Source: Verrucomicrobiota bacterium (lineage in GTDB: Bacteria > Verrucomicrobiota > Verrucomicrobiia > Opitutales > Seribacteraceae). Taken from it: a DNA stretch of 64,000 nt. The position numbers were made by a program, and so were the translations under genes. Positions 8,876 to 30,218 of this stretch are shown here, in pieces. The notes under the pieces were generated by a model. That model ran no database searches. It saw only the letters and a program-made list of their open reading frames with translations, and had not been told where the DNA came from. Numbering within the stretch: position 1 is the first letter of the stretch; the number at the start of each line of letters is the position of its first letter. The stretch covers positions 32,001 through 96,000 of the forward strand of contig JAQBYT010000001.1 of assembly GCA_027622665.1 (NCBI GenBank), given 5' to 3'.

Positions 8876-9664
8876 TTAACGGGAAATACGGATATTGACC
8901 CCGCTCCTACGCGAAAACCCGGAGGAGGTTCCAATGAACCCGCCGTTGATGCCGTTTAATGAAACACCTCCCGCAAAAGGATTTACGTAAACCGGGGAAG
9001 GGCCTCTAGGCAAAATAACAACGGAGGTATTCGCCGGAATACCATTAGTAAACACAATTTGGCTGGGTTGTTGATAAAGGATGGGGCCGGATACACTCGG
9101 AAGTCCCATAAAATTACCTCCCATTACCATCGGACCACCCACGCCGACGGAGATCGCAGAGCGTGACCGAAAGCCAATGCGAGCCTGCCAGTTGTTCTTT
9201 ACCAAATCAAAGGTCACACCCGTGGTACTAAATCGATTATACCTGCTCGCCAATCGATCATAGCCATTCACCCAAGCTAAAAACGGGGTCGGGCCATTTC
9301 CAATGACGACGGGGCGATAGCCGGGACCATACAATATAGCCTGCCCATACCCAATCCCTCCGGCATTCAACATTTTCATAAGCAACTGCAGATGCCCGGG
9401 ATATTCCTTGCCATAAATAAAATAGCTTTCCTTGGAACCGGTTTGCCAACGCAACACGTAGGTTTGGTCAGCCCCGCTAAAAAGTGAGATTGCACTTTCA
9501 AATGTACGACCATCCTTGCGACGAATCTGTACGATTTCGGATTCCTCGTCATAAGAAATGACGGAAGCATCGATCTTTCGCACTCCATCCGCGCTTGTAA
9601 AAACTCTCCCAAGCAAAGGGATGGTGAACGTGGCCAAAAGGAAAACTGAGAGGAGATGCCTCAT
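8876..9664 (-). CDS. Secreted SHD1-like domain protein with Gly/Pro-rich tail
   Basis: Signal peptide; RVFTSADG...VQIRRKDGRTFESAISLFSGADQTYV matches the SHD1 pattern. Confidence 0.7.
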   Translation of the reverse strand: MRHLLSVFLLATFTIPLLGRVFTSADGVRKIDASVISYDEESEIVQIRRKDGRTFESAISLFSGADQTYVLRWQTGSKESYFIYGKEYPGHLQLLMKMLNAGGIGYGQAILYGPGYRPVVIGNGPTPFLAWVNGYDRLASRYNRFSTTGVTFDLVKNNWQARIGFRSRSAISVGVGGPMVMGGNFMGLPSVSGPILYQQPSQIVFTNGIPANTSVVILPRGPSPVYVNPFAGGVSLNGINGGFIGTSSGFSRRSGVNIRISR

Positions 9665-9815
9665 GTAGATAGTACATAAGCGTACTATCTCCCCTTCCGC
9701 AGGTCAAATGATTATAAAGGTTTTTCTTTTATTGTACCTGAGGGCACTATGAGGTTTTATGTTGGTAATACCTATTTCAAATACCCTATAAATCCCACTG
9801 AAAGGAAATCCTACC

Positions 9816-12391: not shown

Positions 12392-13393
12392 ATGACCCGA
12401 TTCTCCATCCTTCTCTGGTGTTCCCTGTTCGCCACTTTCATCTCCCAGGCGAAACTCAAAGTGTTCGTGCTCGCCGGACAGTCCAATATGCAAGGAGCAG
12501 GGCAAGTGGAAATGAAGGAAAACAGCCGCAACGGAGGACGGGGCACCTTGGCCTATCTGGTCAAAAACGAGAAAACGGCCAAGAAGTACGCCCACTTGAT
12601 GAACAAAAAAGGCGAGTGGATCACCCGCCAGGACGTCTGGATCCGCTACGATGACCGACAAGATGGGTTGCGCCCCGGGTTCGGTTACCGTAACACAAGC
12701 ATAGGTCCCGAATTAGGGTTCGGCTCGGTGGTGGGAGATGCCATCGACGAACCGGTGTTGCTCATCAAGACCTGCTGGGGCGGCAAGAACGTGATGGTTG
12801 ATTTTCGCTCACCTTCCGGAGGCATGCCTCCGAAAGCATTGATGGAACGCATACTGGCTGGTAAAAAGAAGCGGGAACCGGATGCCACCATGAAAGACGT
12901 CGAGGCCCAAGTCGGATTTTATTATCGCGAGATGGTTCGTCTCGTGAACGAAACCCTCAAGGACATCAAAAAGAGCTACCCCGCCTATGACGACAAAGGG
13001 TACGAGTTGGTTGGTTTCGGATGGCACCAAGGTTGGAACGACGGAGGCAGCATGGACAACGTCAACGCTTACGAGGAAAACCTCAGCAACATCATAAAGG
13101 ACCTCCGCAAGGAATGGAAAGTGCCCAATTTGCCAGTGGTCATTGGGGTCAGCGGATTTGGTGGGCGCAAGCAATCGGTCGACCGACGCCTCGGCATCAT
13201 AGCGGCCCAGCATGCCGTGGCCAAACGCAAGGAATTCAAGGGCACGGTCGCCAGCGTGGAAACTCGCGACTTCTTCCGTCCCGCCGAGGAATCACCTTCT
13301 CGTCAAGGCTACCACTGGAACGGCAATGCCGAGACCTACTACTTGATCGGCGAGGGGATGGGACAGGCCATGGTGAAACTATTCAAGAAATGA
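12392..13393 (+). CDS. Sialate O-acetylesterase-like (SASA/SGNH) carbohydrate esterase
   Basis: VFVLAGQSNMQG, GPELGFG, IKTCWGG, WHQGWND, YHWNGNAE. Confidence 0.88.
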   Translation: MTRFSILLWCSLFATFISQAKLKVFVLAGQSNMQGAGQVEMKENSRNGGRGTLAYLVKNEKTAKKYAHLMNKKGEWITRQDVWIRYDDRQDGLRPGFGYRNTSIGPELGFGSVVGDAIDEPVLLIKTCWGGKNVMVDFRSPSGGMPPKALMERILAGKKKREPDATMKDVEAQVGFYYREMVRLVNETLKDIKKSYPAYDDKGYELVGFGWHQGWNDGGSMDNVNAYEENLSNIIKDLRKEWKVPNLPVVIGVSGFGGRKQSVDRRLGIIAAQHAVAKRKEFKGTVASVETRDFFRPAEESPSRQGYHWNGNAETYYLIGEGMGQAMVKLFKK

Positions 13394-16053
13394 ATCTGCT
13401 TCGAGGCATCTTCGTCTCTGCCTCGGCAATCGCTTTCGTCCAAGGCGGGTTGCCGGCCGAAGAGGACGCCTGGTGGTCACGTAAGTCGCTGGTCGCACCC
13501 AAGCTTCCTCCGCAAAGCACATGGGCCCGCAACGAGGTAGATCGGTTCATTCTGGCCAAGCTCAAAGCAAGTGGCCTCCGACCATCACAAGAAGCCTCTC
13601 CGCTCGCCCTCGTCCGTCGGGTGACCCATGACCTGACCGGTCTGCCGCCGACCCCAAAGGAAACCGAAGAGTTTCTGGAAGCATTCAAGGCTGATTCGGA
13701 CAAAGCCTACGAAGCCTTGGTGGACCGTCTCCTCGAATCCCCCCGCTATGGCGAACGTTTCGCACGACACTGGCTCGACGTGGCCAAGTACGCAGACACC
13801 TGCGGGTACGACAAAGACAAGTTGCGTCCCAATGCCTGGCCTTACCGAGACTACGTCATACGCTCTTTCAATGAGGACAAGCCCTATGCCCGGTTCGTGC
13901 AGGAACAGGTGGCGGGAGACGCCCTCTTTGTTGATGAACCGGACGGCATTCTCGGACTTGGCTTTCTTGCTGCGGGTCCTTGGGACTTCATCGGCCACTC
14001 GGAGGTTCCGGAAAGCAAGATCGACGGCATGGTCGCCCGCAACTTGGACCGGGACGACATGCTTACCAATGTCCTCAACACCTTCTGCGCCGTCACCATA
14101 CAGTGCGCCCGCTGCCACGAGCACAAGGGTGATCCCATCACACAGGAGCATTACTACAGCCTGCAGTCCGTTTTCGCCGCCGTCGACAAGGCGGACCGTA
14201 AATACGGAACCGATGCCGCAACCGAAAAACATCGTTCCGCGTTAGAGGGCGAGCGCGTTCAATACAGGGCCGAAAACACCAAAATCGAGAAGGATATAAA
14301 ACAGCAAGGCGGCCAGGCGCTGGCCAAGCTCGAATCGCAAATCAAGGCTTTGCAAGCCAAGGCCAAGCCATCAGCCAAACGACCGGAATTCGGTTATCAC
14401 AGCAAGGTCGGGAAGTCTCCCGATCAAGCCAAATGGGTCCAAGTCGACCTCGGCGAACGAGTCGACATCAAGAAAATCGTCCTGCATGCATGCCATGACG
14501 ACTACAACAACATTGGGGCAGGTTTCGGGTTTCCCGTGCGGTTCAGGGTCATTGCCTCCAACCGAGCCGATTTCTCGCGCTCTCAAGTGTTGGTGGACGA
14601 AACAGGACGAGACTTTGCAAATCCCGGATTGGTTCCCATCGAGCACGGGGTTCAGTCTTCCGCCCGCTATATTCGAGTAAAGGCAACGAAATTGGCTCCA
14701 AGATCCAACGACTACATCTTCGCCTTGGCGGAACTGGAGGTCTTGGACGGCAATGGTAAAAACCGTGCCCTAAGGGCCAAGGTTTCCTCGCTCGACTCCA
14801 TCGAGGCCCCGGTTCGTTGGCGGCAAAACAACCTGACCGACGGCATCTGGGCAAAAGGGTCAGACAAGGCAGCCGCCCAAGAAACAGCCAGGTTGAACAA
14901 GGAAAAAACCGCTCTTTTGGCCACGCTCCAGACTCCGGAACGAATGACTCGTCTCGCAGAACTGGAAAAAGCGATCATGCAAACCACCGCCAAGGTCGCC
15001 AAACTCCCCAAGGGCAGCATGGTTTACGCCGCAGCTACTCAATTCAAGGCCCAAGGAAACTTCAAACCGACCAACGGCAAACCCCGCGACATCCGTTTTC
15101 TGCATCGGGGCGAAGTCACCCAACCGCGAGAAGAAGTCAGGCCCGGAACCCTGCCCCTCTTCAAGGATGAAGCGTGGCAGTTCAATCTGCCCAAGAATCA
15201 CGACGAATCCGCTCGCCGAGCCGCCCTCGCCAAATGGCTCGTCCGCAAGGATCACCCGCTCACCTGGCGAACAATCGCCAACCGCGTCTGGCAATGGCAT
15301 TTCGGGCAGGGTCTTGTCCCCTCCCCCAACGACTTCGGCGAACTCGGCCAAACTCCCAGCCATTCCGAACTACTCGACTGGCTTGCCCTTTACTTCCGAG
15401 ACCAGGGTGGTTCCTTCAAGAAAATGCATAAGCTACTCGTGATGAGCGCCACCTACCGGCAGACTTCGAATGGTAACGAAAGCTTTGCCAAGGCGGATTC
15501 AGGTAACCAGTTGCTTTGGCGCATGAACCGCAGGAAACTCTCCGCGGAGGAAATTCGGGACGCTATCCTCTCCGTCAGCGGAAAGCTCAATCTGGAGATG
15601 GGCGGGCCCGGTTACTATCTCTTCGCCTTGGAAAAAACGGCCCACTCGCCCCATTACGAATATCACAAGTTCAATCCGGAGGACGCCAAGAGCCACCGCC
15701 GTTCCATCTACCGGTTCATCGTCCGTTCGCAACCGAACCCCTTCATGACTACCTTGGATTGCGCCGACTCCTCCCAGAGCACCCCAAAGCGCAACGAGAC
15801 CCTCACCTCCTTGCAGGCCCTCAGCCTCCTGAATAATAAATTCAGCATAGCCATGGCCCGACACTTTGCTTCCCGACTTGAAAAAGAAGCCGATGACTTG
15901 CTCGTGCAAGTGAAGCGCGGACACCTTTTGGTCACAAGCAGGGATCCCGCAAAAGAGGAAACTGGTTTGCTGGTGAAATATGCCCAAAGCCACGGCTTGG
16001 AAAATCTCTGCCGAGCCTTGTTCAATCTCTCCGAATTCACTTATTTGGACTGA
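13390..16053 (+). CDS. DUF1549/DUF1553 protein with F5/8 (discoidin) insertion
   Basis: ATG 13390 overlaps the upstream stop (ATGA); NEVDRFI, DLTGLPPT, YGERFARHWLDVAKYAD, CARCHEHK, WVQVDLG...LAELEV discoidin, NRVWQWHFGQGLV, RRSIY, NLSEFTYLD. Confidence 0.92.
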   Translation: MNLLRGIFVSASAIAFVQGGLPAEEDAWWSRKSLVAPKLPPQSTWARNEVDRFILAKLKASGLRPSQEASPLALVRRVTHDLTGLPPTPKETEEFLEAFKADSDKAYEALVDRLLESPRYGERFARHWLDVAKYADTCGYDKDKLRPNAWPYRDYVIRSFNEDKPYARFVQEQVAGDALFVDEPDGILGLGFLAAGPWDFIGHSEVPESKIDGMVARNLDRDDMLTNVLNTFCAVTIQCARCHEHKGDPITQEHYYSLQSVFAAVDKADRKYGTDAATEKHRSALEGERVQYRAENTKIEKDIKQQGGQALAKLESQIKALQAKAKPSAKRPEFGYHSKVGKSPDQAKWVQVDLGERVDIKKIVLHACHDDYNNIGAGFGFPVRFRVIASNRADFSRSQVLVDETGRDFANPGLVPIEHGVQSSARYIRVKATKLAPRSNDYIFALAELEVLDGNGKNRALRAKVSSLDSIEAPVRWRQNNLTDGIWAKGSDKAAAQETARLNKEKTALLATLQTPERMTRLAELEKAIMQTTAKVAKLPKGSMVYAAATQFKAQGNFKPTNGKPRDIRFLHRGEVTQPREEVRPGTLPLFKDEAWQFNLPKNHDESARRAALAKWLVRKDHPLTWRTIANRVWQWHFGQGLVPSPNDFGELGQTPSHSELLDWLALYFRDQGGSFKKMHKLLVMSATYRQTSNGNESFAKADSGNQLLWRMNRRKLSAEEIRDAILSVSGKLNLEMGGPGYYLFALEKTAHSPHYEYHKFNPEDAKSHRRSIYRFIVRSQPNPFMTTLDCADSSQSTPKRNETLTSLQALSLLNNKFSIAMARHFASRLEKEADDLLVQVKRGHLLVTSRDPAKEETGLLVKYAQSHGLENLCRALFNLSEFTYLD

Positions 16054-17507
16054 TGATGAATCCGATGGGCACGCGGAGAGGCTTTCTCAAGCAATCCAGC
16101 TTCGGCGGAATGGCTTTGGCCTCGATGCTAGCTGGGGATCCTCTCTCAGCCACCCCTTCCGTCATGCCCCAAGGGCTCCATCACCCGCCTCGGGCCAAAC
16201 GAGTCATCCAACTGTTCATGGCGGGAGCGGCTAGCCATCTCGACATGTTCGACTTCAAGCCCGAGTTAGTGAAACGACATGGCGAAAAATCGGACTTCGG
16301 CGAACATGTGGAAGCTTTTCAGAACGGACTCGGTCCATGGATGAAATCCCCTTTCGAATTCAAGCGATACGGACGATGCGGCAAGCTCATGAGCGATATC
16401 GTGGCTCCTCTCGGTGAAGTGGTCGACGACATGGCCTTCATTCACAACATGGTGGGGAAAACGGGGGTCCATAGTCAGGCCACCTACCTGCAAGCCACCG
16501 GGTTTCAATTGCCGGGTTTCCCCGGCGCCGGCTCCTGGGTGAGCTATGGCCTTGGTTCAGCAAATGAAGACCTGCCCACCTTCGTGGTCCTGCCCGATCA
16601 CCGCGGGTTCGCCTCCAACGGCCCGAAGAACTGGGGGTCTGCCTTTCTGCCTACTCACACGCAAGGCACCACCATCTTTCCTCAACGCAAGAACCCCATA
16701 GAGGATCTTCATCCCCATGCCGACTACGTCACAGAGGCCAGTCACCGAGAAGGCATCGAATTGGTCAATCAATTGAACCAGCGCCATAGTAGGAGTCGCC
16801 CCGGAGACCCTCGCCTCGATGCCCGCATACGCAGCTATGAGCTGGCCGCCCAGCTTCAATTGTCCGCCACGAGAGCATTGGACATATCCAAAGAACCCAA
16901 GCATGTCTTGAAGATGTACGGTCTAGACAATCCCAAGACGAAGTACCCAAAGGATATCAATCCCGAGGAAGAAACCGAGTACTTCGGTCGCAAGTGCTTG
17001 ATCGCACGTCGACTGATCGAACGCGGCGTACGATTCGTCCAAATCTGGAGTGGCAACGACAATAGTTTTCCTCGCCGCAATTGGGACAGTCACGAGGACA
17101 TGAACCGCGATCACCCGTCCCTTTCACTCGGCATGGCGCGAGGCGTTGCAGGCCTCATTCAAGACCTAAAGCAACGCGGTCTGCTGGAAGACACCATCAT
17201 CCACTGGACGACCGAGTTCGGCCGCATGCCCAGTTCGCAGGCAGGCAAAGGACGTGACCACAACCCTTTCGTCTTTACCAACTGGTTGGCTGGCGGAGGC
17301 ATCAAGGGGGGCACGACCCACGGCGAGAGCGATCAATGGGGATACAAACCCCTCGACCGGAAGCACCCCACCCAAGTCTACGACGTATACGCCACCATGC
17401 TTCATCTCCTAGGCATCGACCACGAACGCCTCACGGTACGCCACAACAGCATCGACCGGCGCCTGACCGATGTTCACGGACATGTGATTGGTGAGTTGCT
17501 TTCTTAA
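16053..17507 (+). CDS. DUF1501 family protein, Tat signal
   Basis: TRRGFLK; AKRVIQLFMAGAASHLDMFD; ARRLIERGVRFVQ; TEFGRMP; GRDH. Confidence 0.92.
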   Translation: MMNPMGTRRGFLKQSSFGGMALASMLAGDPLSATPSVMPQGLHHPPRAKRVIQLFMAGAASHLDMFDFKPELVKRHGEKSDFGEHVEAFQNGLGPWMKSPFEFKRYGRCGKLMSDIVAPLGEVVDDMAFIHNMVGKTGVHSQATYLQATGFQLPGFPGAGSWVSYGLGSANEDLPTFVVLPDHRGFASNGPKNWGSAFLPTHTQGTTIFPQRKNPIEDLHPHADYVTEASHREGIELVNQLNQRHSRSRPGDPRLDARIRSYELAAQLQLSATRALDISKEPKHVLKMYGLDNPKTKYPKDINPEEETEYFGRKCLIARRLIERGVRFVQIWSGNDNSFPRRNWDSHEDMNRDHPSLSLGMARGVAGLIQDLKQRGLLEDTIIHWTTEFGRMPSSQAGKGRDHNPFVFTNWLAGGGIKGGTTHGESDQWGYKPLDRKHPTQVYDVYATMLHLLGIDHERLTVRHNSIDRRLTDVHGHVIGELLS

Positions 17508-17556
17508 TTTCATTGGGTTTGACGTACAAATCCAACGACATAATTGTTAAAGGATA

Positions 17557-18495
17557 ATGGTCACCGACTTAGGACTGGACAAATCGCCGCTGACGGAGCT
17601 GTTTCCCCAACCGCGAAACGCCGAGGAATGGTTGCAATATGCCTTGAGCGAGGAACAGGTCAGGCACTTCAAGGAGCATGGCTACCTGCACAAGGTAAAG
17701 TTGCTGAACGAGGAGCAACTGGACGCCTTGAGAAAACAGTTGGCCGAAATGGTCGATCCCGAGCACGATGGACGTGAGTTCTTTTACGAGTACCACAGCA
17801 ACGAGTCGGAAAGCACCGACAATGTGCTGTTTCATGCCTTGGGAGCTTGGCGAGTGCGACCCGCCTTTCACGACGCCCTATGGAATCCCGCCTTCCTGAT
17901 GGCGGCCTACCAGTTGCTGGGCTCGGGCTTCAGGCTCTTTCACGACCAACTCTTCAGTAAACCGGCCAAGCACGGCAGCGTGGTGGCGTGGCATCAGGAC
18001 TACTCCTACTGGACTTGGACGACACCCATGGCCCACCTCACCTGCTGGATGGGTCTGGACGACGCGGATATCGAGAACGGGTGCATGTACTACGTCCCCG
18101 ACAGTCACCACTGGGGCCTGCTTGAGAAGACAGGCTTGGCCGGCGACATGGATGCCGTGAGAGATGTCCTGACACCCGATCAGTTAGCCGACTTCGACAA
18201 CAAGATACCCGTCGAAGTGAAAGCGGGAGAAGCCGCCTTCCACCATCCTCTCATGATGCACGGTTCCTACGAGAACCGCTCCGCCCGGAAGCGCCGAGCC
18301 ACCTTGATAAACGTCTTCGCCGACGGCGTGATCAGCAACCGGGAAGACGATGGAACCAACGCCCCCGGGGCGGACAACTACCCAAGGGTTCCCAGGGGGG
18401 AACGAATGGGCGGCACTTATTATCCCTTGTTGCTCGATGCCGAGGAAGCATACTCCGGATTCACCGAATCGATCCCGACGATCAACGATGTTTGA
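17557..18495 (+). CDS. Phytanoyl-CoA dioxygenase (PhyH) family Fe/2OG enzyme
   Basis: WHQDYSYW (HxD), NGCMYYVPDSH, HGSYENRS..RR. Confidence 0.9.
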   Translation: MVTDLGLDKSPLTELFPQPRNAEEWLQYALSEEQVRHFKEHGYLHKVKLLNEEQLDALRKQLAEMVDPEHDGREFFYEYHSNESESTDNVLFHALGAWRVRPAFHDALWNPAFLMAAYQLLGSGFRLFHDQLFSKPAKHGSVVAWHQDYSYWTWTTPMAHLTCWMGLDDADIENGCMYYVPDSHHWGLLEKTGLAGDMDAVRDVLTPDQLADFDNKIPVEVKAGEAAFHHPLMMHGSYENRSARKRRATLINVFADGVISNREDDGTNAPGADNYPRVPRGERMGGTYYPLLLDAEEAYSGFTESIPTINDV

Positions 18496-18591
18496 TTACA
18501 GGAAATCTCGCGGACGGCTGAAAGAAGAAGCGGTTGCAACAGCCCGTTCTCGCTTACAAACATTCGACTGTATTGCCTAGCTAATCGTTCG

Positions 18592-21492
18592 ATGAACCCC
18601 CTTGCCACAGCTATGGTGAGCTTGACCCTTATCTGCATCCTCGAGAGTGCGGAACGGGAGCATGTCTTCAGCAAGGAAGACAAGTCTTGGTGGGCGATTC
18701 AGCCAGTAATTGAGCCAGTGGTTCCAACTCATGGAAAGAAATGGGCACGTAACGAAATCGACCGCTTCGTGGCTCGCAAACTCGATCAGGCCAAACTCTC
18801 CCATGCCCAGACGGCCGGGGCTCGCGAACTCGTACGCAGAGTCTATTTCGACCTGCACGGATTGCCTCCGACCCCCAAGCAGGTTGAAGCTTTCCTCTCC
18901 GCCCATGAACAGGATCCCGACGAAGCCTACGAGACGCTCGTGGAAAGCTTGCTCGCCTCATCCCGGTATGGCGAGCGCTGGGCCACCCACTGGCTAGACG
19001 TGGCGCGCTACGCGGACTCCGATGGCTACCGAGCGGACGATTTTCGTCCCGGAGCCTTCCTGTATAGAGATTATGTGATCGATTCACTCAATCATGACAA
19101 ACCGTACGACCAATTCGTTCGCGAGCAACTGGCTGCCGACGAGTTTGCTGCCAACGATCCTAAAATCCTCATTGCCACCGCCTTCCTTCGTCACGGGGTC
19201 TACGAATGGAACCAGCGCGAAGCTCGCATGCAATGGGAAATCATCATGAACGAGATGACAAAGGTGACGGGCGAAGCGTTTCTAGGGCTCGGCATTGGTT
19301 GCGCCCAGTGCCACGACCACAAGTTCGATCCCATTTTGCAAAAGGACTATTACGCTCTGCAAAGCTTTTTTTCCGGTGTCTGGTGGCCCGAAAACCGCAA
19401 GCTGGGATCTTCCGAAGACTTAATGAAATTAAAGATTTGGAAAAGCCAAACCCAAGAGATTCGAGCCAAGCTAGCAAAAATAGAAGGCGATGCTCTCGCA
19501 GGAAAGAAAGCCTTCGCGGTGGGCCAGTTTCCGGAGGACATCAAGGCGATGTACAACAAGCCCGCCGCGGAGAGGACGCCCTACGAGGAGCAACTTGCCC
19601 AAATGGTTGAGCGTCAGGTATTCGCTCAGGGCCGGAAGCAGAACATCGAAAAACTATTGGAAAAGAAGCCTGAGGAGCTGACCCAGTACTTGAAGTTTAA
19701 AAAGCAACTCGATGCTTTCGGCAGCAAAAAGCCTCAATTGCCAGATGCTTTCATCACCACGGACGTCGGACCAAAGGCCGCTCGAACCTTCATGCCATCG
19801 AGCTTGGGCAAAACCGAGGTGAAGCCTGCGTTTCTTTCCCTATTGGAACAACCCGTCCCGAACATCAAGCCCTTGTCAAAAACCTCGGGGCGTCGCAGCG
19901 CCTTGGCCAAATGGATCGCTAACAAGGACAATCCGCTCTCCACCCGGGTCATAGTGAACCGCATATGGCAGCATCACTTCGGACAGGGCATCGTGCCTAC
20001 GCCCAATGATTTCGGCACATTGGGTGAACCGCCTAGCCACCCTGAACTGCTGGATTGGTTAACGATGCGTTTTGTGGAAAAAGGTTGGCGAATGAAGGCC
20101 TTGCACAAGCTCATCATGACCAGCGCAACCTACCGCCAGACCACCCGTCACGAACCCGGGGAAAGAGAGAAACTCACTGATCCCGGCAATCGCCTCCTGT
20201 GGCGTTTTTCGCCACGGCGGCTCTCCGCGGAACAGACGCGCGACGGCATGCTGGTCGTTTCAGGCGAACTGCGGGAGAAAAAAGGTGGTTCGCCCGAGAA
20301 TGCCGACAAGCTCGTTCGCAGCGTATACCTAAAGAAAATGCGGAACTCGCCCGACAAAGTACTGCAAAGTTTCGACGCTCCCTCCGGTTTCGACTCAGCT
20401 CCCACTCGCCTCCAAACGACCACCCCTACACAATCGCTTTTGCTGGCAAACGCAGATTGGCCGCGGAATAGAGCTAAATCTTTTGCCGCCAAGTTGCTTG
20501 GCAACAACAAAACGGTCAGTCAAAAGCTCGTTGAGCGAGGCTATCTTGGTGCATACGCTCGACCGCCAACCGAGGGTGAACGGCGCACGGCGCTCGATTT
20601 CCTCAAAGCCCAGAAAGTGGCTGCCAAAATATCCACTCCACAAAAAGTCGACAAGTTTCCCGATGAAAACGGGCTACGTCCCATTGCCCGGGCGTTTGGG
20701 AACGTGAAAGGATTCGACTTGGGCGAACGCGCCCTGTGGTTGCAACCTGGCAGTCGCTTCGAACAGCTTGAAGTGGAGGATCCCGAACTGGACCTCGACG
20801 CCTTTACCATAGAGGTCGTAGCCAGCTTGGATAATCTACACCCTGACGCCAGTGTGAACACCTTGGTCTCCAACTGGAACGGCAACCAGCAAACTCCCGG
20901 CTGGACCTTCGGCGTGACCAGCGTCAAGTCCGCCTACCAACCCCGCAACTTCATTCTCCAGTTGGTCGGCGAAAACGTGGGGGGCGACGTCGTCTATGAA
21001 GTGGTTGCCTCCAACCTGCGCATTCCCACCGGCAAGCCCGTTTATCTAGCCGCAACCGTCGCCGCCAATGGGAAGGGGGAAGGCAAGGCAACCTTCCATT
21101 TCAAAGACCTTTCCGATCCCTATGCAAAACTGCAGTCCGCAGAAGTCGATCACGGCATAGCAAGACGCATCCAGACTCCTGATGTTCGTCTGCTTATCGG
21201 TGGTCGGGATCAGAGCGGACACCTCTGGGACGGCCAACTCGCTCGTCTTGTAATATCGTCCGGAGTCTTGGTGCGTGACCAGTTGTTAATCTCCGCTCCC
21301 AAAAGTCCGCCGAGCAGGCTTATAGACTGGAGTTTCAAAGGACAAGACGGCGAACGCCCCGTTCCGAACACGGCTTGGATTCGTCGCGAGAAACCTAAGT
21401 CATCCAGTGCCCCCCCCTTCAGCACCCTTGCCGCCGTGACGGACTTCTGCCACGCGTTGCTGACCTCCAACGAGTTTCTTTATCTTCATTGA
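18592..21492 (+). CDS. DUF1549/DUF1553 protein with C-terminal LamG/ConA-like insertion
   Basis: WWAIQP, NEIDRFV, DLHGLPPT, YGERWATHWLDVARYADSDG, CAQCHDHKFDP, NRIWQHHFGQG; FTIEVVA...LLIGG...WDGQLARL LamG-like; SNEFLYLH. Confidence 0.92.
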   Translation: MNPLATAMVSLTLICILESAEREHVFSKEDKSWWAIQPVIEPVVPTHGKKWARNEIDRFVARKLDQAKLSHAQTAGARELVRRVYFDLHGLPPTPKQVEAFLSAHEQDPDEAYETLVESLLASSRYGERWATHWLDVARYADSDGYRADDFRPGAFLYRDYVIDSLNHDKPYDQFVREQLAADEFAANDPKILIATAFLRHGVYEWNQREARMQWEIIMNEMTKVTGEAFLGLGIGCAQCHDHKFDPILQKDYYALQSFFSGVWWPENRKLGSSEDLMKLKIWKSQTQEIRAKLAKIEGDALAGKKAFAVGQFPEDIKAMYNKPAAERTPYEEQLAQMVERQVFAQGRKQNIEKLLEKKPEELTQYLKFKKQLDAFGSKKPQLPDAFITTDVGPKAARTFMPSSLGKTEVKPAFLSLLEQPVPNIKPLSKTSGRRSALAKWIANKDNPLSTRVIVNRIWQHHFGQGIVPTPNDFGTLGEPPSHPELLDWLTMRFVEKGWRMKALHKLIMTSATYRQTTRHEPGEREKLTDPGNRLLWRFSPRRLSAEQTRDGMLVVSGELREKKGGSPENADKLVRSVYLKKMRNSPDKVLQSFDAPSGFDSAPTRLQTTTPTQSLLLANADWPRNRAKSFAAKLLGNNKTVSQKLVERGYLGAYARPPTEGERRTALDFLKAQKVAAKISTPQKVDKFPDENGLRPIARAFGNVKGFDLGERALWLQPGSRFEQLEVEDPELDLDAFTIEVVASLDNLHPDASVNTLVSNWNGNQQTPGWTFGVTSVKSAYQPRNFILQLVGENVGGDVVYEVVASNLRIPTGKPVYLAATVAANGKGEGKATFHFKDLSDPYAKLQSAEVDHGIARRIQTPDVRLLIGGRDQSGHLWDGQLARLVISSGVLVRDQLLISAPKSPPSRLIDWSFKGQDGERPVPNTAWIRREKPKSSSAPPFSTLAAVTDFCHALLTSNEFLYLH

Positions 21493-21495
21493 GCC

Positions 21496-22917
21496 ATGGC
21501 TTGCAACCGCATAACACTACCTGCCTCGCGTCGCGATTTCCTTCTTTCGGCAGGATCCGGCTTCGGTGCCGTGGCTCTCTCCGCCTTGACTGGCGAACGC
21601 GCCTTGGCCGCGACCTCGGACAATCCGGCTGCCGCCAAGATACCGCATGCCCTTGGACGAGCCAAGAACGTCATCTTTCTCTTCATGGAAGGCGGTCCGA
21701 GTCACCTCGATCTCTTCGACCCCAAGCCCTTGCTCCAGAAACTGGCGGGACAAAGCCTCCCGGACAGCTTCGAACGCCCCGTAACCGCCATGGGCGAAGT
21801 GAATTCGCCCCTGCTCGCGTCCAAGCGCAAATGGAAGCAACATGGTGCAAGCGGCCTTTGGATTTCCGACTGGCTCCCGAACCACGCCCGCATCGCCGAC
21901 GAACTTTGTGTAATTCGATCCTGCGTTTCGGACGGAATCAACCATGCCGGCGGCGTCTGCCAAATGAACACGGGCTTGGTCTTTGGCGGCAGACCCTCGC
22001 TGGGAGCTTGGGTATCCTACGGCTTGGGCACGGAAAACGAAAGTTTGCCGGGCTTCGTGGTGATCAAGGATACCAAGGCGATGGTCGTCAACGGTGCCCG
22101 ATGCTGGGGTTCGGGCTTCATTCCCGCCAGTTTTCAAGGCACCTTGCTGGAACCGGGCGACGAACCGATCTCTTACCTGAACGCCCCAAAGGACATGTCT
22201 CTGGACAGGCAGCGAAACAAACTTGCTTTTCTGCAAGGCCTCAATCGACGCCACCAAAAGAATCGTGCATCCAACACTGATCTCGAGGCCCGCATACGCA
22301 GCTACGAACTAGCGGCTCGCATGCAAGCGGAAGCCCCCGAGGCAGTCGATCTGTCCAAGGAAAGTCAAGCGATCCAAAACCTTTACGGACTAGACCAAGA
22401 TGAAACCAAAACCTTTGGTCGCCAGTGCCTGATGGCCAGGCGCCTAGTCGAACGAGGAGTGCGTTTCGTCCAGCTTTACCATGGAGCCGGCAGCAAATGG
22501 GACAGCCACTCGGGCATGGAAAAAAATCACTCCAAATTATGCACTTCGATCGATCAGCCGATCGTCGGCTTGATCACCGACCTGAAGGCGAGAGGGCTAC
22601 TCGACGAGACGCTTGTCATCTGGGGCGGAGAGTTCGGGCGCACACCGATGAGCGAGAAAGGCGATGGCCGCGACCACAACCCTACTGGTTTTACCATGTG
22701 GATGGCGGGCGGCGGAGTGAAAAAAGGCCAGGCGGTTGGAGCAACAGACGAACTCGGGCTCTTTGCAGTGAAGGACAAATTGCACGTTCGCGATCTGCAC
22801 GCCACCATTCTCGGATTGCTTGGCCTTGATCACACAAAGGTGGTCTACATGCACAAGGGACGTCCCGAGCGAGTGGACCTCAACGAAGGACATGTATCGC
22901 CAAAAATCATTGGCTAG
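21496..22917 (+). CDS. DUF1501 family protein, Tat signal
   Basis: SRRDFLL; AKNVIFLFMEGGPSHLDLFDPKP; GEFGRTP; GRDH. Confidence 0.92.
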   Translation: MACNRITLPASRRDFLLSAGSGFGAVALSALTGERALAATSDNPAAAKIPHALGRAKNVIFLFMEGGPSHLDLFDPKPLLQKLAGQSLPDSFERPVTAMGEVNSPLLASKRKWKQHGASGLWISDWLPNHARIADELCVIRSCVSDGINHAGGVCQMNTGLVFGGRPSLGAWVSYGLGTENESLPGFVVIKDTKAMVVNGARCWGSGFIPASFQGTLLEPGDEPISYLNAPKDMSLDRQRNKLAFLQGLNRRHQKNRASNTDLEARIRSYELAARMQAEAPEAVDLSKESQAIQNLYGLDQDETKTFGRQCLMARRLVERGVRFVQLYHGAGSKWDSHSGMEKNHSKLCTSIDQPIVGLITDLKARGLLDETLVIWGGEFGRTPMSEKGDGRDHNPTGFTMWMAGGGVKKGQAVGATDELGLFAVKDKLHVRDLHATILGLLGLDHTKVVYMHKGRPERVDLNEGHVSPKIIG

Positions 22918-23270: not shown

Positions 23271-24098
23271 CTAGAGATTGTAAGCTTTCATGGCGGTTCC
23301 GCCCCAAACCGCAGATTGTTCGTCATCTGAAAGTTGAGATAGGAATTCGGCGACAATTGAAACCCATCGTTGGTAATCAATCGCAAGTTTGGCTACAGGC
23401 CAATCGGAACCAAACATCATACGATTCGGACCAAAGGCTTCGAGAGCAACCTCCGCAAAACGAAACAGTTGCTCTTCCGTCCAGTTTGCCCAAGCGGCCT
23501 CCGTAGCCATACCGGAAAGTTTGCAGTAGACATTGGGTCGTTCAGCCATTTCCCGCATAAGTTCGGCCCATGGTTCCATGGAGTCGTCGCGAATCCGAGG
23601 CTTGGCAACATGGTCTAGCACAAAGACAAGGTCGGGATGCCTATCCACGAACTCAATGGAAGCGGCAAGCTGACGTTCATAGATTAGGATGTCGTAGACG
23701 AGATTAAAATCCTTGAGGAGAGCAACACCTCCGCCAAAAGCTTCCCCGAGTATAAAACGATCATCGGGTTCGTCTTGGACGATATGGCGAATGCCCTTAA
23801 GATAAGGGTTTGCGGCATAGCCGCAGAGTATATCGGAAATATTCTCATCTGCTAGCGGAAACCAGCCCACGACGCCCTTGATGAAATCGTGTTCGGCAGC
23901 GTACCCTAGCAACGCATCCGTCTCCGCCAACGTTTGCCTTGCTTGAACCGATACAACGGCATCGATGCCAGCTTGTTCAATTTCTTGCTTTATGTCTGTA
24001 GGCAAATGATCTTCCTTTAAAACGCCCATTTCCTCGTTCATCCAAGGATACTCGACAGGATCATATTTCCAAAAGTGATGGTGTGAATCGATTTTCAT
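23271..24098 (-). CDS. Amidohydrolase-2 family, sugar lactonase (L-fuconolactonase-like)
   Basis: MKIDSHHHFW, VQARQ, KGIRH, VLDHVAKP, CKLSG, MFGSDWPV. Confidence 0.88.
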   Translation of the reverse strand: MKIDSHHHFWKYDPVEYPWMNEEMGVLKEDHLPTDIKQEIEQAGIDAVVSVQARQTLAETDALLGYAAEHDFIKGVVGWFPLADENISDILCGYAANPYLKGIRHIVQDEPDDRFILGEAFGGGVALLKDFNLVYDILIYERQLAASIEFVDRHPDLVFVLDHVAKPRIRDDSMEPWAELMREMAERPNVYCKLSGMATEAAWANWTEEQLFRFAEVALEAFGPNRMMFGSDWPVAKLAIDYQRWVSIVAEFLSQLSDDEQSAVWGGTAMKAYNL

Positions 24099-24123: not shown

Positions 24124-25167
24124 TTACTTTCCTTTTCCTCTTGATCGCATCTCGGCGAGCAAGCGTGGCCACCCAAGTCGTGAAAGCTTTTCCGCCATTT
24201 TTCGATAGCCTTCACCATAGGTCGGACTGCTGCTTTTTTGCATGTTGTCCAAGAGGATCGAAGATAATTTATTCGTTTCTATTTTGAGCAAATTGGATGC
24301 CCCCAGATTACAAAAGCCCTCGACGACGTCGGGGGGAGCCTCAACAAAAAGTTCATTAAGCCAAACATGCATGTGCTCATGGGCAAGGACAGCCTCACAT
24401 TCGGTGTGAGGGAGACCATACAGAACCAGAATGCGATGTTCGAAAGTAGTATTGGACACATTGCCTTTTGTTACGGTACGGAACTTTGTGAGAGTGAGAC
24501 CCTTTAGTTTACCACTAGCACGGATGCGTTTCGCTTCTTCATCCAAAGTGGGCTTATCTACGAGAACTAGCGTGATCTTTCCCTCGGGTTTTACAATTCC
24601 GATTTGGCTCAATGCTTTCTTTACCCGTTCGTTTACCAAACCGAGGGCTTTCTCCTCGAGCACGGCATTGGTTAAACAGGTCAAGCAAGCAAAGCGGTTT
24701 GAATCAAGAATTTGCTCCCTTTTAGCTTCCCGTTTTGCAAACATGCGTCCGCATGAACCACAGCTAGCGACAAAAGAGAAATGATCGACATGCGCGAGCA
24801 TGCCCCATTGGTCGCGGCGAAACTCATCACCTCCCTTGAAAACCTTCTTGCATACAAGACACCGGAAACAGGCGGTATGGTAGGTTTTGCCTCCAGCTTC
24901 CATCGTACGAGTCCCGAGAGTTTTTGAACACAATTCGCAACGAGGCTGGCTTTGCCATTCCCGAGCATAGGCCTGATCCCCATCAATAAATCGGGAAAGA
25001 GAAAATCGATACTCACGGTTGGAAATGCGAAGACCGATTTGATCGCCTTCTATTTCAAAAATTTCGCCCTGCGCTTTTCGACCGTCAGTCGTGGTCCAAG
25101 TTCTCAATTCGGCCGATGCAACATAGGGCAAGGCTCCAATAATAAATCCAAGTAGGAGTCGAAGCAT
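24124..25167 (-). CDS. Secreted SHD1 + LIM zinc finger + DA1-type (DUF3633) metallopeptidase
   Basis: Signal peptide; SHD1 RTWTTTDGR...FIDGDQAY; Cx2Cx16Hx2Cx2Cx2Cx19Hx2H; CxxC...CxxC; ILVLYGLP, AHEHMHVW, VVEGFCN, SPTYGEGYR; alternative TTG start 25182. Confidence 0.82.
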   Translation of the reverse strand: MLRLLLGFIIGALPYVASAELRTWTTTDGRKAQGEIFEIEGDQIGLRISNREYRFSLSRFIDGDQAYAREWQSQPRCELCSKTLGTRTMEAGGKTYHTACFRCLVCKKVFKGGDEFRRDQWGMLAHVDHFSFVASCGSCGRMFAKREAKREQILDSNRFACLTCLTNAVLEEKALGLVNERVKKALSQIGIVKPEGKITLVLVDKPTLDEEAKRIRASGKLKGLTLTKFRTVTKGNVSNTTFEHRILVLYGLPHTECEAVLAHEHMHVWLNELFVEAPPDVVEGFCNLGASNLLKIETNKLSSILLDNMQKSSSPTYGEGYRKMAEKLSRLGWPRLLAEMRSRGKGK

Positions 25168-25188: not shown

Positions 25189-26598
25189 TCAGTCCAAAAG
25201 GTTTTCCCAGTGGGCAATTCGAGTGGCAATTTGCGTTGGTCCAGGCATCCCCGGTTTTTCCCGACGTGCAAAAGCTCGGTCGAGATCAAAGACTTCTCGC
25301 CAGTCGTCGTCGAGAGCAGCGCATGCAGGATGAGCTCCCTTGGCTTGTTCGTCGGTAAGGTCGGGCAAGGCTACGCCCACCCTCTCCGCTTCGGCAACTA
25401 CGCCACCGACGGCATGATGAGCATCACGAAAGGGTACACCTCGCTCAACGAGATAATCAGCCAAATCGGTAGCCAAAAGCATGGGATCTGAAGCGACTTC
25501 TCGACAACGGTCGGCATTAATTTCCATTCCATCGATGGTGGCCGCGAGGACGGCTAGACCAATGCCGAGCTGGTCGAATGAATCGAACACGGGGGGCTTG
25601 TCTTCCTGAAGGTCTCGATTGTAAGTAAGCGGCAGACCCTTGATCGTAACGTAGAGATTTTGCAAGTTGCCGACAAGACGCCCCGTCTTTCCTCGCAGTA
25701 ATTCGAGAGAATCCGGATTTTTCTTCTGTGGCATGAGAGATGATCCCGTGGTAAAACTATCGGGCAAAACCACGAACCCGAACTCGCTGGAATTCCACAG
25801 AATGAAATCCTCCGCCAATCGAGATATATGTAGTCCGCAGGTAGCGCATGCACTGGCAAACTCTACGAAGATGTCGCGATCGGCTACCGCATCCATTCCA
25901 TTCGCCGTCAAGCGAGGCTCGCCTTGGTCGTCCACGAAACCAAGTTCGGTGGCAACGAAGTAACGGTCGATCGGCAAAGTGGAACCCGCTATAGCTCCTG
26001 ACCCGAGCGGGCAGACATTGGCATGATCGGCCACTTCGAAGAACCGCATGCGATCTCTGGCAAAAGCCTCTACATGGGCAAGTAGATGATGCCCAACGGT
26101 AACGGGTTGGGCACGCTGAAGGTGGGTATATCCGGCGATCGGAACAGACGCATTTTGTCGAGCCTGACCAAGAAGGGATTTCATGACAGTCTCGAGAGCT
26201 TCACCCAACTTGCCGCAGGCGTCTTTAAAGAAAAGGCGCATGTCTGTGGCGATTTGGTCGTTTCGACTCCGACCCGCATGTAACTTGGCGGCGGCAGGAG
26301 TTTTTGCCAGCAAGGCTTGTTCAAGGTTCATGTGAACGTCCTCGTGCTCGGCATCCCATTCAAAAGTCCCTGCCTCAATCTCGGAGAGAATTTCGTCCAA
26401 ACCTTTGTGAATATCCTCGCACTCGTCGGCTGAAAGCAGACCCACCTTCTCCAGCATGGAGGAATGGGCCTTGCTACCGTTCACGTCAAAGGGGGCAAGC
26501 CTCTTGTCAAATGAAACGGACTCTCCAAACCACTTCATTAGTTCAGATGGGCCGTCAGAAAATCTTCCGCCCCATGTTGCTTGTTTGCCGTCGGTCAT
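25189..26598 (-). CDS. argH: Argininosuccinate lyase
   Basis: [47 protein letters not shown]. Confidence 0.97.
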
Positions 26599-26758
26599 AT
26601 GAACCCAATTTTTCAAACCTCCCGAATTGCCGCAACGTTATTTCGATGTAAAAAATGGGGAAAGTTCCGACTGTGTTTCAAGAGCAACTAGCAACGAGCA
26701 CTCTTACCGAAGGAAATCCCCAATCAAGAAGGCGAAAGATCTCCCACAGGACAAGGAC

Positions 26759-27511
26759 TCAGGACAATATCTTTTTTACCGATGCCACCGAATAGTCACG
26801 ATTCAGCTTCGCAATAAAATCCAAGGATATGTCTTTCGGACAAGCAGCTGAACATTCACCATAATTTCGGCAATTGCCAAAACCGGCTTCGTCCATGGTG
26901 GCGACCATGTTGAGCACGCGTTGGTCCTTTTCGGCCTGACCTTGCGGCAGCAGGTTAAGGTGACCGGCCTTGGCGGCAGTAAACAGCATAGCCGAGGCAT
27001 TCTTGCATGCGGCGACACAAGCACCGCAACCGATACAGGCAGCGGCGTCCATCGCCCGATCCGCGTCTTGCTTTGCTATGGGGATTGCATTGCCGTCCGG
27101 GGCGCTACCAGTGCGGACGGAAACATATCCACCGGCTTGAATGATCTTGTCGAAGGCGGAACGATCCACGACAAGATCGCGAATGACCGGAAAGGCCTTA
27201 GCCCGAAAAGGCTCGATGGTGATTGTTTCGCCATCGTTAAACTTCCTCATATGGAGTTGGCAGGTGGTAGTAGAATCTTCAGGCCCATGAGGCAATCCGT
27301 TGATCGTCAGAGAACAAGTGCCGCAAATCCCTTCCCGACAGTCGTGATCAAAAGAAACGGGTTCTTTTCCGTTTTCCAGAAGCTGTTCGTTAAGGAGATC
27401 GAGCATCTCGAGGAAAGAGCAATCCTCGGACACCCCATCCAGATCGTGCATTTCAAATTGTCCGGAATCCTCGGGTCCGGCCTGTCGCCAAATCTTCAGC
27501 TTCAATTTCAT
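26759..27511 (-). CDS. sdhB: Succinate dehydrogenase/fumarate reductase Fe-S subunit
   Basis: [35 protein letters not shown]. Confidence 0.96.
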
Positions 27512-27522
27512 CCGTACAATCC

Positions 27523-29439
27523 TTACTTGTAACTGCGCACGGCAAGTTTCACATTTTCAAAATGAAGATCCTCTTTGTGCCTGGTGGGCTCGCTGCCCTG
27601 ACCGTTGTGCTCCCAAACGGCAGCATGTGAAAAGTTCTCATCATCGCGTACTGCTTCGCCCTCTGCGGTTTGATGCTCCTCACGGAAGTGCCCCCCACAT
27701 GACTCGTCTCTTTCAAGAGCGTCTCGGCACAGCAGTTCACCGAAATCGAGAAAATCCTCCGTTCTGGAAGCCCTCTCAAGTTCAGCATTCAAGTGTTCCC
27801 CTTTACCGGGAACGATAAGGTTTTGAGAAAAATCTTCTTTAAGGTCTTGAATCAGTCCAATGGCTTTTTGTAGACCTGACGCATTACGAGCCATGCCCGC
27901 AAATTCCCACATGATATGCCCTAGTTCCTTGTGGTAGGAACGAGAAGAGCGTTTGCCCCCAGAAGAAAGGTAACCCGAGACACGCTCACGAACCTGATCA
28001 ATGGCTTCCTTGAATATCGGTCCATCGGGATCGGGGGCGCCGGCACCTTCTTCGGCAAGATAATTAGCCACCGTGTAGGGGATGACGAAATAACCGTCGC
28101 TCAGTCCTTGCATCAATGCGCTGGCTCCAAGACGGTTCGCTCCATGATCAGAAAAGTTTGCTTCTCCTAGTACAAAACACCCTGGGAGCGTACTCATGAG
28201 GTTGTAGTCCACCCAAAGACCTCCCATCGTGTAGTGGATGGCAGGATAAATGCGCATCGGACGCGAGTAGGCGTTCTCACCCGTGATGCGTTCGTACATC
28301 TGAAACAGGTTTCCATATCGCTCCCGAATCATGCTTTCTCCGAAACGATCGATCGCATCGGAGAAATCCAAGTAGACGCCTCGGGCACCGGGTCCCACTC
28401 CGAGACCATTGTCGCAAGCTTCCTTGGCCGATCGACTGGAAATGTCTCTGGGCGCTAAATTACCAAAACTGGGATATTTGCGTTCGAGATAGTAATCCCG
28501 AGCCTCTTCGGGTATCTGATCGGGCGACTTGTTGCAATCCGCCGGATCTTTCGGAACCCACACCCTTCCATCGTTTCGAAGAGATTCCGACATTAGAGTC
28601 AGCTTGGATTGGTGATCGCCCGAAACAGGTATGCAAGTGGGATGAATCTGAGTATAGCAAGGGTTTGCAAAACCGGCGCCGCGTTTGTAGGCTCGAAAGG
28701 CAGCCGTTACGTTACAGCCCGTGGCATTAGTGGAAAGAAAGTAGGCATTACCATACCCGCCGGTAGCAAGAATGACGGCATCGGCAGACCAAGATTCGAT
28801 GGCTCCGGTAATGAGGTTCCGAGTGATAATTCCCTTGGCATGGCCATTCACCACCACCACGTCGAGCATCTCGTGGCGGTTATGCATTTTCACCTGACCC
28901 GAAGCAATTTGCCGGCTCAGCGAACTGTAGGCGCCAAGCAAGAGTTGTTGCCCAGTCTGACCACGGGCATAGAAGGTTCGACTTACTTGAGCTCCTCCAA
29001 AAGAGCGATTAGCCAAAAGCCCCCCGTACTCGCGGGCAAAGGGAACTCCTTGCGCCACGCATTGGTCGATAATGTTGCCACTTACTTGAGCAAGCCGATA
29101 GACATTGGCTTCCCTTGAACGAAAGTCGCCCCCCTTGACGGTATCGTAAAAAAGTCTGTGTATGCTGTCGCCATCGTTCTGATAGTTCTTGGCGCCATTG
29201 ATTCCACCTTGGGCAGCAATGGAATGAGCCCGCCGCGGACTGTCTTGATAGCAGAAGCAGTTCACATTGTAACCAAGTTCACCCAAGGTGGCGGCAGCGG
29301 ATCCGCCAGCCAATCCCGAACCGACAACGATTATGCGGTACTTTCGCTTGTTTGCGGGATTCACCAGCTTCATCGAAAAGCGATGGTTGTCCCATTTTTC
29401 GGATAAGGTTCCGGCTGGAATTTTGGCATCAAGAATCAT
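27523..29439 (-). CDS. sdhA: Succinate dehydrogenase/fumarate reductase flavoprotein
   Basis: [48 protein letters not shown]. Confidence 0.96.
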
Positions 29440-30218
29440 TGGGTGGGTGCCTCCGAGTTCGAACTGCTGACGGCGGCAGGAACGGCTTGGTCGAAGGCCA
29501 CCTTATCAAAAACTTCCACCGCCCCATGCTTTTGCAGGATAACCGCCAATGGAATTGAAATGAATCCAAAGAAAATCACCCAGCCATAGAGAATGGCCAA
29601 ACTATCAAGCTTGCCACGCCAAGATTCTCGGCGGAGACCGAGAGATTGAAACATACTAGACACGCCATGAGTTAAGTGGCGACAAAGCAAAAACATGCAT
29701 AAAGCATAGACGGCGGACAACCACTCGGACCCAAAACCGGTAAGCACCATAAGATAAACGTCTTGCACCTCCGCTCCGTCAGACGCCGGAACATAAGTGG
29801 TAAGCTCCTTGTATTCAGGAAATACGGTTTGAGTGGTGAAATGAAGAATGTGGAATACGATAAAGGCAAACAGTATGGAACCCGTCAGCCCCATGTTGAG
29901 CGATGACCATCCGGACTTTTTAGTGACCTCCACATCATTTGACTTGGGACGCGAGGCACGGTTCTCCGCACATATTTTAGCAGCAGTCCAAGCATGGACG
30001 ACTACGACGGCAAGCAGAAACAATCTCGAACCCCACAACACAAACCAAGGAAGGGCTTTCAGTTGGTAAGCATAAGTATTAATAGCTTCAGCACCTGCAA
30101 ACATCTGCAGGTTGCCCGCCATGTGAACGAAGACAAAACCGACCAAGACAAAGCCCGAAAGAGCCATCAGGTATTTTTTTCCCAATGAACTGGAACAGAT
30201 AGAACAAATACTAGTCAC
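29436..30218 (-). CDS. sdhC: Succinate dehydrogenase cytochrome b558 subunit
   Basis: Five TM helices with haem His (HMAGN, VVHA, VFHILH, RHLTHG); first gene of the sdh operon. Confidence 0.93.

Follow-up and report, generated by a model that had tools for sequence, protein, structure and literature searches.

A DA1-type zinc peptidase with a likely export signal and an SHD1-fold domain, encoded behind argH in one marine Opitutales family

Introduction

According to Dong et al. (2017, 10.1101/090563), plant DA1 is a latent peptidase whose LIM-like residue C274 is required for activation, and the LIM-like domain, which is described as ancient, is needed for its activity. The mode of control that these fingers exert on the enzyme, a target for seed and organ size, is treated there as an open question. 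In the stretch of 64,000 nucleotides of Verrucomicrobiota DNA analysed here (the window), an open reading frame directly behind argH encodes a protein that combines a hydrophobic leader, a small beta domain, zinc fingers and a peptidase domain recalling that of plant DA1. The initial annotation considered this a new bacterial LIM-DA1 protease in which an SHD1 domain stands in place of the plant UIMs. The locus raises the question whether the protein is an exported counterpart of the ubiquitin-activated plant enzyme with a different switch, or a bacterial peptidase with a role of its own.

The bacterial LIM-DA1 core as such is already known. With reference to Burroughs et al. (2011), Dong et al. 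(2017) point to a high similarity between DA1 and proteins of Roseiflexus, and NCBI gives bacterial members the name 'protein DA1', as do the Atlas clusters. The claim of novelty is therefore withdrawn for this core. Burroughs et al. (2011) and the supplement of Dong et al. (2017) with its Roseiflexus alignment may bear on how much of the architecture is already described. A full-text literature search, to which most subscription papers were inaccessible, returned no publication on an SHD1-DA1 fusion or on an experiment with a bacterial DA1. In the sets examined, the fusion of an SHD1-fold domain to a DA1-type peptidase is limited to one marine family.

The gene and its surroundings

The open reading frame at positions 24124..25167 is a real gene. 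It runs on the minus strand from an ATG at 25167 to a TAA at 24124 and encodes 347 amino acids, comprising a predicted signal peptide, an SHD1-fold domain, three zinc fingers and a DA1-type peptidase. Comparison with four close relatives gave dN/dS values of 0.06-0.10, indicating strong purifying selection; a fifth pairwise comparison was saturated. The GC content around the gene is ordinary. The product scores 49.4 bits with the Pfam model DA1-like (E 4.8e-13, cut-off 25) and 35.8 bits with LIM (E 9.5e-9, cut-off 22.9), and it is matched by no NCBIfam family.

The upstream neighbour is argH (25189..26616, minus strand; TIGR00838, 525.6 bits), which ends 21 bases before the start codon on the same strand, in agreement with the distance of a few bases given earlier. 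At 25 bases beyond the stop codon follows an Amidohydrolase_2 gene (23271..24098, minus strand), which is L-fuconolactonase-like with a score under the NCBIfam cut-off. Scans for promoters (4 found, 6.1 expected) and terminators (11 found, 9.8 expected) remained at chance level. Two of four seawater metatranscriptomes contain contigs that cover parts of the gene, with strand and level unreadable, and one contig spans the end of argH and the start of the gene at about 95% identity; these contigs may represent DNA.

Some features of the surroundings were noted in passing. A database protein (P0030) consists of an ArgH C-terminus fused to the product of the DA1-type gene, which has lost its own C-terminus; this looks like frameshift artefacts in the two neighbouring genes. 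Most family loci have, upstream of argH and in its orientation, the reading frames that stand at 26759-30218 in the window and that we take to be sdhCAB; a divergent pyrG-like gene follows them. The region 13021-22917 of the window holds two tandem pairs, each with an open reading frame of about 1000 residues followed by one of about 480, and a dioxygenase-like reading frame lies between the pairs; presumably they resemble the planctomycete pairs of DUF1549/DUF1553 and DUF1501 proteins.

Distribution and gene order

A word-index search covering proteins of up to 812 residues gave 35 relatives, 34 of which have at least 45% identity. Of 76 genomes of the host's own family, 68 carry the gene, among them 25 of the 26 high-quality ones; it occurs in all 5 genera, nearly always as one copy, and is retained in genomes of only about 2 Mb. 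A scan with one genome per species confirmed 103 loci, the best 80 of which comprise 62 from Opitutales/Verrucomicrobia and 18 from other phyla. Among these best 80, argH precedes the gene in 58 of the 62 family loci, and the four exceptions have a contig edge at the start of the gene. No argH lies near any of the 18 outside loci. The amidohydrolase gene follows in 42 of the 62 family loci among the same 80. When 400 genomes were drawn from the class, 28 other matches were found, none of them from the taxonomic order of the host family. No transporter, other peptidase, stress, zinc or ubiquitin-system gene occurs among the recurrent neighbours that were identified, and they include no conserved partner gene.

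The near-universal presence in the family and the fixed position behind argH indicate a fixed, inherited gene, which is a core gene of this one marine Opitutales family; most simply, it would have been gained by the ancestor of the family. A functional link to argH or to the amidohydrolase was considered and rejected, since argH is absent near the 18 outside loci and the downstream gene varies. The adjacency to argH probably reflects inherited gene order and not a link to arginine synthesis.

The peptidase domain

The C-terminal part, residues about 170-343 (24139..24660, minus strand), is a DA1-type zinc peptidase (MEROPS M102, Pfam PF12315) with a gluzincin fold, and the Pfam DA1-like model matches 32 of 32 family members. 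The C-terminal motifs quoted in the initial annotation were all located: GLTL, ILVLYGLP, HEHMH (263-267), VEGFCN with E283, and YGEGYR with Y317. Its statement that the C-terminus follows plant DA1 motif by motif holds as far as homology extends from the fingers to the C-terminus, but the EE pair of the plant motif HEMMH-x15-EE, as given by Dong et al. (2017), reads VE in this protein, and only the second glutamate, which is E283, is invariant. The HEHMH motif (H263, E264 and H267; 24367..24381), E283 at 15 residues after the motif (24319-24321) and Y317 (24217-24219), all on the minus strand, are conserved in 141 of 141 aligned proteins. By analogy with M1 enzymes, H263, H267 and E283 would be the zinc ligands, E264 the catalytic base and Y317 the tyrosine that assists in the transition state.

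An AlphaFold2 model based on the 141-sequence alignment has a pLDDT of 94.9 and a pTM of 0.90. Residues 170-347 superpose on catalytic lobes of gluzincins, among them the M1 aminopeptidases, with a best Z of 11.2 (rmsd 2.8 over 149 residues, 13% identity); M1 catalytic domains overall gave Z values of 10-11 over 147-151 residues at 8-16% identity, middling values of a kind that is common. Weak Peptidase_M1 matches are also found in distant relatives. Foldseek gave no match to the model at E<=0.001, and PDB searches by sequence and profile returned LIM domains only and no structure of a DA1-type peptidase. A likeness to IrrE, a zinc-dependent regulatory protease, is weak and below significance (Foldseek E 5.5e-3; M78 matches under the cut-off).

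Two positions can be compared with mutants of the plant enzyme. We take C139 to be equivalent to Arabidopsis DA1 C274, and K222 to R358, in a numbering inferred from Trifolium C261 and R345 with one offset of 13. The position of K222 (24502-24504) is occupied by lysine in 12 and by arginine in 49 of the 62 family rows among the best 80 of 103 loci. The exchange R358K lowers the peptidase activity of Arabidopsis DA1; both plant positions are named by Dong et al. (2017). The active site is intact and of the gluzincin type, and catalytic competence is supported by these computations.

The zinc fingers

All finger motifs quoted earlier were found with the spacing given (C77-x2-C80-x16-H97-x2-C100-x2-C103-x2-C106-x19-H126-x2-H129, then C136xxC139...C161xxC164). 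The profile alignment to plant proteins reveals a different register from the one that was proposed. Finger 1 (C77, C80, H97 and C100; 24868..24939, minus strand; ligands present in 61-62 of 62 rows) corresponds to finger two of the LIM domain in the plant proteins. The next two (C103, C106, H126 and H129; C136, C139, C161 and C164; 24676..24861, minus strand) correspond to both fingers of the LIM-like domain in plants, and each of their four CxxC/H pairs ahead of the peptidase has its plant equivalent in the alignment. The bacterial protein lacks an equivalent of finger one of the plant proteins and of a six-residue linker, and this is how the near-canonical LIM spacing arises. A canonical LIM domain has eight ligands with a cysteine at position 7; this position is His126 in 62 of 62 family rows, so the domain is near-canonical only. 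The proposal of a LIM domain and a second module is thus retained for the motifs, the Pfam LIM match and a structural match of the model to LIM domains (Z 6.8-7.1), but the LIM spacing is a hybrid, the 'second module' is half of the LIM-like domain, and the number of fingers is three, not four.

All 12 ligands are kept in 60-62 of the 62 family rows from the best 80 of 103 loci. In 67 signal-bearing distant relatives the eight LIM-like positions are nearly always C or H, with His126 kept in 61 and His129 in 65 of them, and the conservation of these two histidines argues for metal binding rather than disulfide formation. The nine finger cysteines and C286 are nearly invariant, and C139 is invariant in the 141-sequence alignment.

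The SHD1-fold domain

Residues 20-74 (24946..25110, minus strand) form an SH3-like beta domain in the model. For residues 19-74, comparison with SHD1 of yeast Sla1 (2HBP) gives Z 8.4 and rmsd 1.9 over 56 of 66 residues, and Foldseek compares the domain to SHD1 with probability 1.00, E 0.015 and TM 0.65 on the target. Pfam SHD1 matches neither the whole protein nor the isolated domain nor any of 32 family members, which makes SHD1-fold the correct label. A profile built from the family finds 10 domains in the host's own genome, 5 of which match Pfam SHD1 at E<=0.01, one of them over the cut-off. The earlier call of an SHD1-like domain therefore stands on fold and on transitive sequence evidence, though not on Pfam.

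When the profile was iterated, the genome yielded 14 further proteins with an SHD1-like domain, which immediately follows a hydrophobic leader in 12 and lies at the C-terminal end in 2. The ten proteins scanned for accompanying domains carry, among others, PQQ propeller, thioredoxin, trypsin, CAP and leucine-rich repeat domains, and further LamG together with planctomycete cytochrome domains. In the window itself, a protein with a leader and an SHD1-like domain is encoded at 8879-9703 on the minus strand (open frame of 275 amino acids, no Pfam family). It has been published that extracellular proteins of bacteria contain SHD1 as a module without catalytic function (PMC5906684).

The SHD1-like profile matches 60 of the 62 family loci among the best 80 of 103, the remaining two being cut by contig ends. 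Among the 150 listed database relatives it matches 5, two full-length family members and three fragments, and profile searches of three sets of 18, 19 and 9 outside loci detected no such domain. The proposal that SHD1 occurs in place of the UIMs has to be abandoned: the SHD1 clade lies far from the plant proteins (see below), the same domain occurs on 14 unrelated proteins of the genome, and the majority of the bacterial relatives lack UIM and SHD1 alike. In view of those 14 proteins, the domain looks like a lineage add-on, a generic accessory of envelope proteins, and not like a substitute for ubiquitin recognition. Its mean identity of 51% (fingers 47-53%) and its direct contact with finger 1, which it abuts with no linker, would also be compatible with a specific role.

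Export and the envelope

Residues 1-19 (25111..25167, minus strand) are a predicted Sec-type signal peptide with an A-S-A cleavage motif and no twin-arginine consensus. The prediction uses a custom hydropathy rule, in which a start is signal-peptide-like if the best 10-residue hydropathy ahead of the first domain is at least 2.0. Among the best 80 of 103 loci, a hydrophobic stretch precedes the first domain in all 59 family loci that have DNA there, which upholds the signal peptide of the initial annotation as a likely export signal. The Tat consensus is found in 0 of 62 family proteins and in 0 of 67 other signal-bearing proteins. The 347-residue protein is likely to be exported by the Sec pathway. 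It could be argued instead that the protein stays in the cytoplasm, its N-terminus being a membrane anchor or untranslated and its fingers working where zinc fingers normally occur. Several database gene calls begin past the leader (forms of 322-333 amino acids), and 34 of the 111 distant relatives lack one. However, the leader is short, in frame in every one of the 59 loci and diverges like a signal peptide, with a mean identity of 18% against about 50% for the domains. Its end with an A-x-A motif in the 347-residue protein and the leader-then-domain layout shared by 12 of the 14 other SHD1-like proteins of the genome also count against a cytoplasmic location, to which we assign hardly any probability.

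Zinc fingers in an exported protein had been called unusual. In the bacterial set examined they are the commonest form: of 111 distant relatives in the alignment, 67 have a signal-peptide-like start by the hydropathy rule, 34 begin at a finger, some of which may be shortened gene calls, and 10 are ambiguous. The host family also appears to be without the standard enzymes for disulfide formation. DsbB or VKOR was detected in 0 of 76 family genomes, while controls were matched in 6 and 3 of 14, and the host genome itself (93.5% complete) has DsbD and no DsbA match. This makes exported zinc fingers plausible. A loss of DsbB and VKOR as a special feature of the family was considered and rejected, because in an order set of 201 genomes either protein was found in only 16 of 190 Opitutales outside the family. 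The absence is a background of the whole order, which permits the gene and does not explain it, although it takes away most of the oddity that the initial annotation saw in exported fingers. It suggests that most of the Opitutales sampled have an envelope without standard disulfide formation. In 36 other genomes with signal-bearing forms, no DsbB was found and VKOR was matched in 3, two of them over the cut-off.

Relation to plant DA1

A profile search of 1.84 billion representative sequences gave 315 proteins at E<=1e-30, 150 of which are listed. The relation to plant DA1 is clear at the profile level, with an hhalign probability of 99.6% over 270 columns against five plant proteins (P0191-P0195, from Trifolium, Typha, Gastrolobium and Macadamia). 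Over the LIM-like domain and peptidase the identity is 24% (E 4e-17). A model of plant DA1 from the five-sequence alignment had a pLDDT of 45.8, too poor for superposition. Pfam finds no UIM in the 347-residue protein and matches UIM_2 in the plant protein P0193.

Trees were calculated for the region matching residues 133-342, after 12 of 208 candidate rows had been dropped for low coverage or overlong matches. They are unrooted and the plants in them are flowering plants only, so donor and direction cannot be read from them. In a FastTree phylogeny of 196 rows, a group of 18 rows (support 99) unites all five plant proteins with 13 from bacteria, and 12 of these 13 are signal-less. With LG+C20 and 46 hand-picked rows, the plants pair with an Anaerolineaceae protein, P0142 (96/82), inside the same group (97/86). 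The SHD1 clade (100/99) belongs to a different group in this LG+C20 tree, with proteins of Desulfobacterota, Pseudomonadota, Fidelibacterota and Sericytochromatia (95/95). A single clade of plants and SHD1 forms was rejected (AU p=0.026; 46 rows, LG+G4). Common descent of the family with the Verrucomicrobiota forms L093, L096 and L099 gave AU p=0.25, which is a non-rejection only.

These tree positions indicate that the gains of SHD1 and of UIMs belong to different branches, and that neither took the place of the other. The 347-residue protein is a true member of the bacterial DA1-like family and not of the ubiquitin-activated plant subfamily. An expected bearing of the gene on the origin of DA1 is not borne out, since other, mostly signal-less bacterial forms are closer to the plants. 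In both trees, plant DA1 has its nearest relatives in P0142 and 12 related, mostly signal-less multi-LIM proteins, in line with the similarity to Roseiflexus mentioned by Dong et al. (2017); these proteins are better candidates for studies of DA1 origin.

Two further groups of the phylum were observed. In other Verrucomicrobiia, seven loci (L107:1051-2286 and L108-L113) encode a leader, LIM-like fingers, a DA1-like peptidase, a proline-rich linker and, at the C-terminus, a domain of some 75 residues. This domain has no Pfam family and falls in unnamed Verrucomicrobiota clusters of the Atlas (0.92-0.93), with a weak lead to PilP (0.85, 38% of members). Loci L084 and L086-L103, from two to three other families, encode signal-bearing DA1-like peptidases with non-LIM fingers of the type CxxC...Y/F-CSxxC and form a clade of their own (support 97).

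Possible functions

In view of the above, several functions can be considered. The best reading, to which we give about an even chance, is that of a Sec-exported, probably periplasmic bacterial DA1 (M102) zinc peptidase whose substrates are one or a few particular proteins of the envelope. The chain would be exported unfolded and would load its catalytic and structural zinc outside the cytoplasm, a step that the lack of any recognisable pathway for disulfide formation in the host would permit. The fingers could serve as a structural platform and a substrate-docking surface beside the catalytic lobe, by analogy with the requirement for the LIM-like domain in plant DA1. The SHD1-fold domain, probably added after the family ancestor had acquired the peptidase, would be a generic accessory following the signal peptide in this lineage, for localisation in the envelope or for peptide binding. 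The near-universal retention of the gene in the family points to a core envelope function. Counted against this reading are the closest folds of the enzyme, which are broad-specificity aminopeptidases (at the 8-16% identity noted above), and the lysine at the position equivalent to R358K.

The same fold matches, together with the weak Peptidase_M1 matches of distant relatives, would fit a general nutritional role, in which an exported amino- or endopeptidase degrades imported marine peptides and the fingers and SHD1-fold domain only stabilise or anchor it. The marine habitat of the host, as judged from relatives, and the occurrence of signal-bearing forms across many phyla would agree with this. 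Such a role is nevertheless rather unlikely: the gene is nearly always single-copy at a fixed housekeeping locus, no peptide transporter was among the identified recurrent neighbours, and the other M1 domains are missing, with about 150 residues aligning. Moreover, the one characterised homologue is a site-specific endopeptidase; DA1 cuts BB between A60 and Y61, as given by Dong et al. (2017).

Regulation could be superimposed on proteolysis. The enzyme might be a latent protease that its N-terminal region keeps inactive until a partner binds the SHD1-fold domain, in the way that ubiquitin activates plant DA1. The latency of the plant enzyme and its need for C274 described by Dong et al. (2017), the invariance of the equivalent C139, the N-terminal position of the SHD1-fold domain with its retention in 60 of 62 family loci (among the best 80 of 103), and a pTM that suggests a defined arrangement of domains in the model would be in agreement with such a switch. 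Yet SHD1 and UIMs sit on distant branches, with the AU test against one clade, the enzyme of the 18, 19 and 9 outside loci works without the domain, and the domain is promiscuous in the genome with no partner gene conserved nearby, so that we find this switch quite doubtful. The fingers themselves could act as the gate, losing zinc or becoming oxidised under stress in a normally reducing periplasm. This would be consistent with the near-invariance of the nine finger cysteines and C286, with the absence of DsbB and VKOR from the family, with the DsbD of the host genome and with the weak fold and profile likeness to IrrE. It is very improbable, since the ligands are equally conserved in signal-less forms and in plants, as expected of structural fingers, while the IrrE match is not significant and no stress or zinc gene is among the identified recurrent neighbours. 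The broader notion that a widespread marine verrucomicrobial family depends on an exported DA1-type protease, latent and switched by some non-ubiquitin signal of the envelope, be it an SHD1 partner or zinc loss or oxidation at the fingers in a periplasm without disulfide-forming enzymes, likewise has only a small chance of being correct. If true, it would provide the first ubiquitin-free model of LIM-like fingers gating a peptidase of the DA1 type, and the protein would be a compact substitute that folds well for the DA1 family. Independent of the reading that is preferred, a homologue of 328 residues with a pLDDT of 95 and without the long low-complexity parts of the plant proteins offers a practical route to a structure and to a test of ancestral latency.

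Comparison with known systems

Sla1 SHD1 (PDB 2HBP, Pfam PF03983), which binds NPFxD cargo motifs, has the same fold as the N-terminal domain over 56 of 66 residues. At 18-22% identity, the bacterial domain is below Pfam detection, and it is homologous to domains of its own genome that pass Pfam SHD1. With the M1 aminopeptidases (tricorn factor F3, aminopeptidase N and LTA4 hydrolase) the peptidase shares the fold of the catalytic lobe and an HExxH motif with a downstream glutamate. It differs from them in the position of this glutamate at 15 residues past the motif, in the alignment of only about 150 residues and in lacking the M1 accessory domains. Prokaryotic LIM and DA1-like metallopeptidases have the same core as the 347-residue protein; its SHD1-fold domain stands where other prokaryotic forms carry further fingers, and the status as a core gene with a fixed place behind argH sets its family apart from them. 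Plant DA1 and DAR proteins (PF12315 and PF00412, M102) have in common with the bacterial protein the HExxH motif, the third-ligand glutamate, GLP and YGxGxR. Unlike plant DA1, the bacterial protein has a signal peptide and an SHD1-fold domain, no UIMs and no serine-rich insert, and it carries three fingers where the plant enzyme has four.
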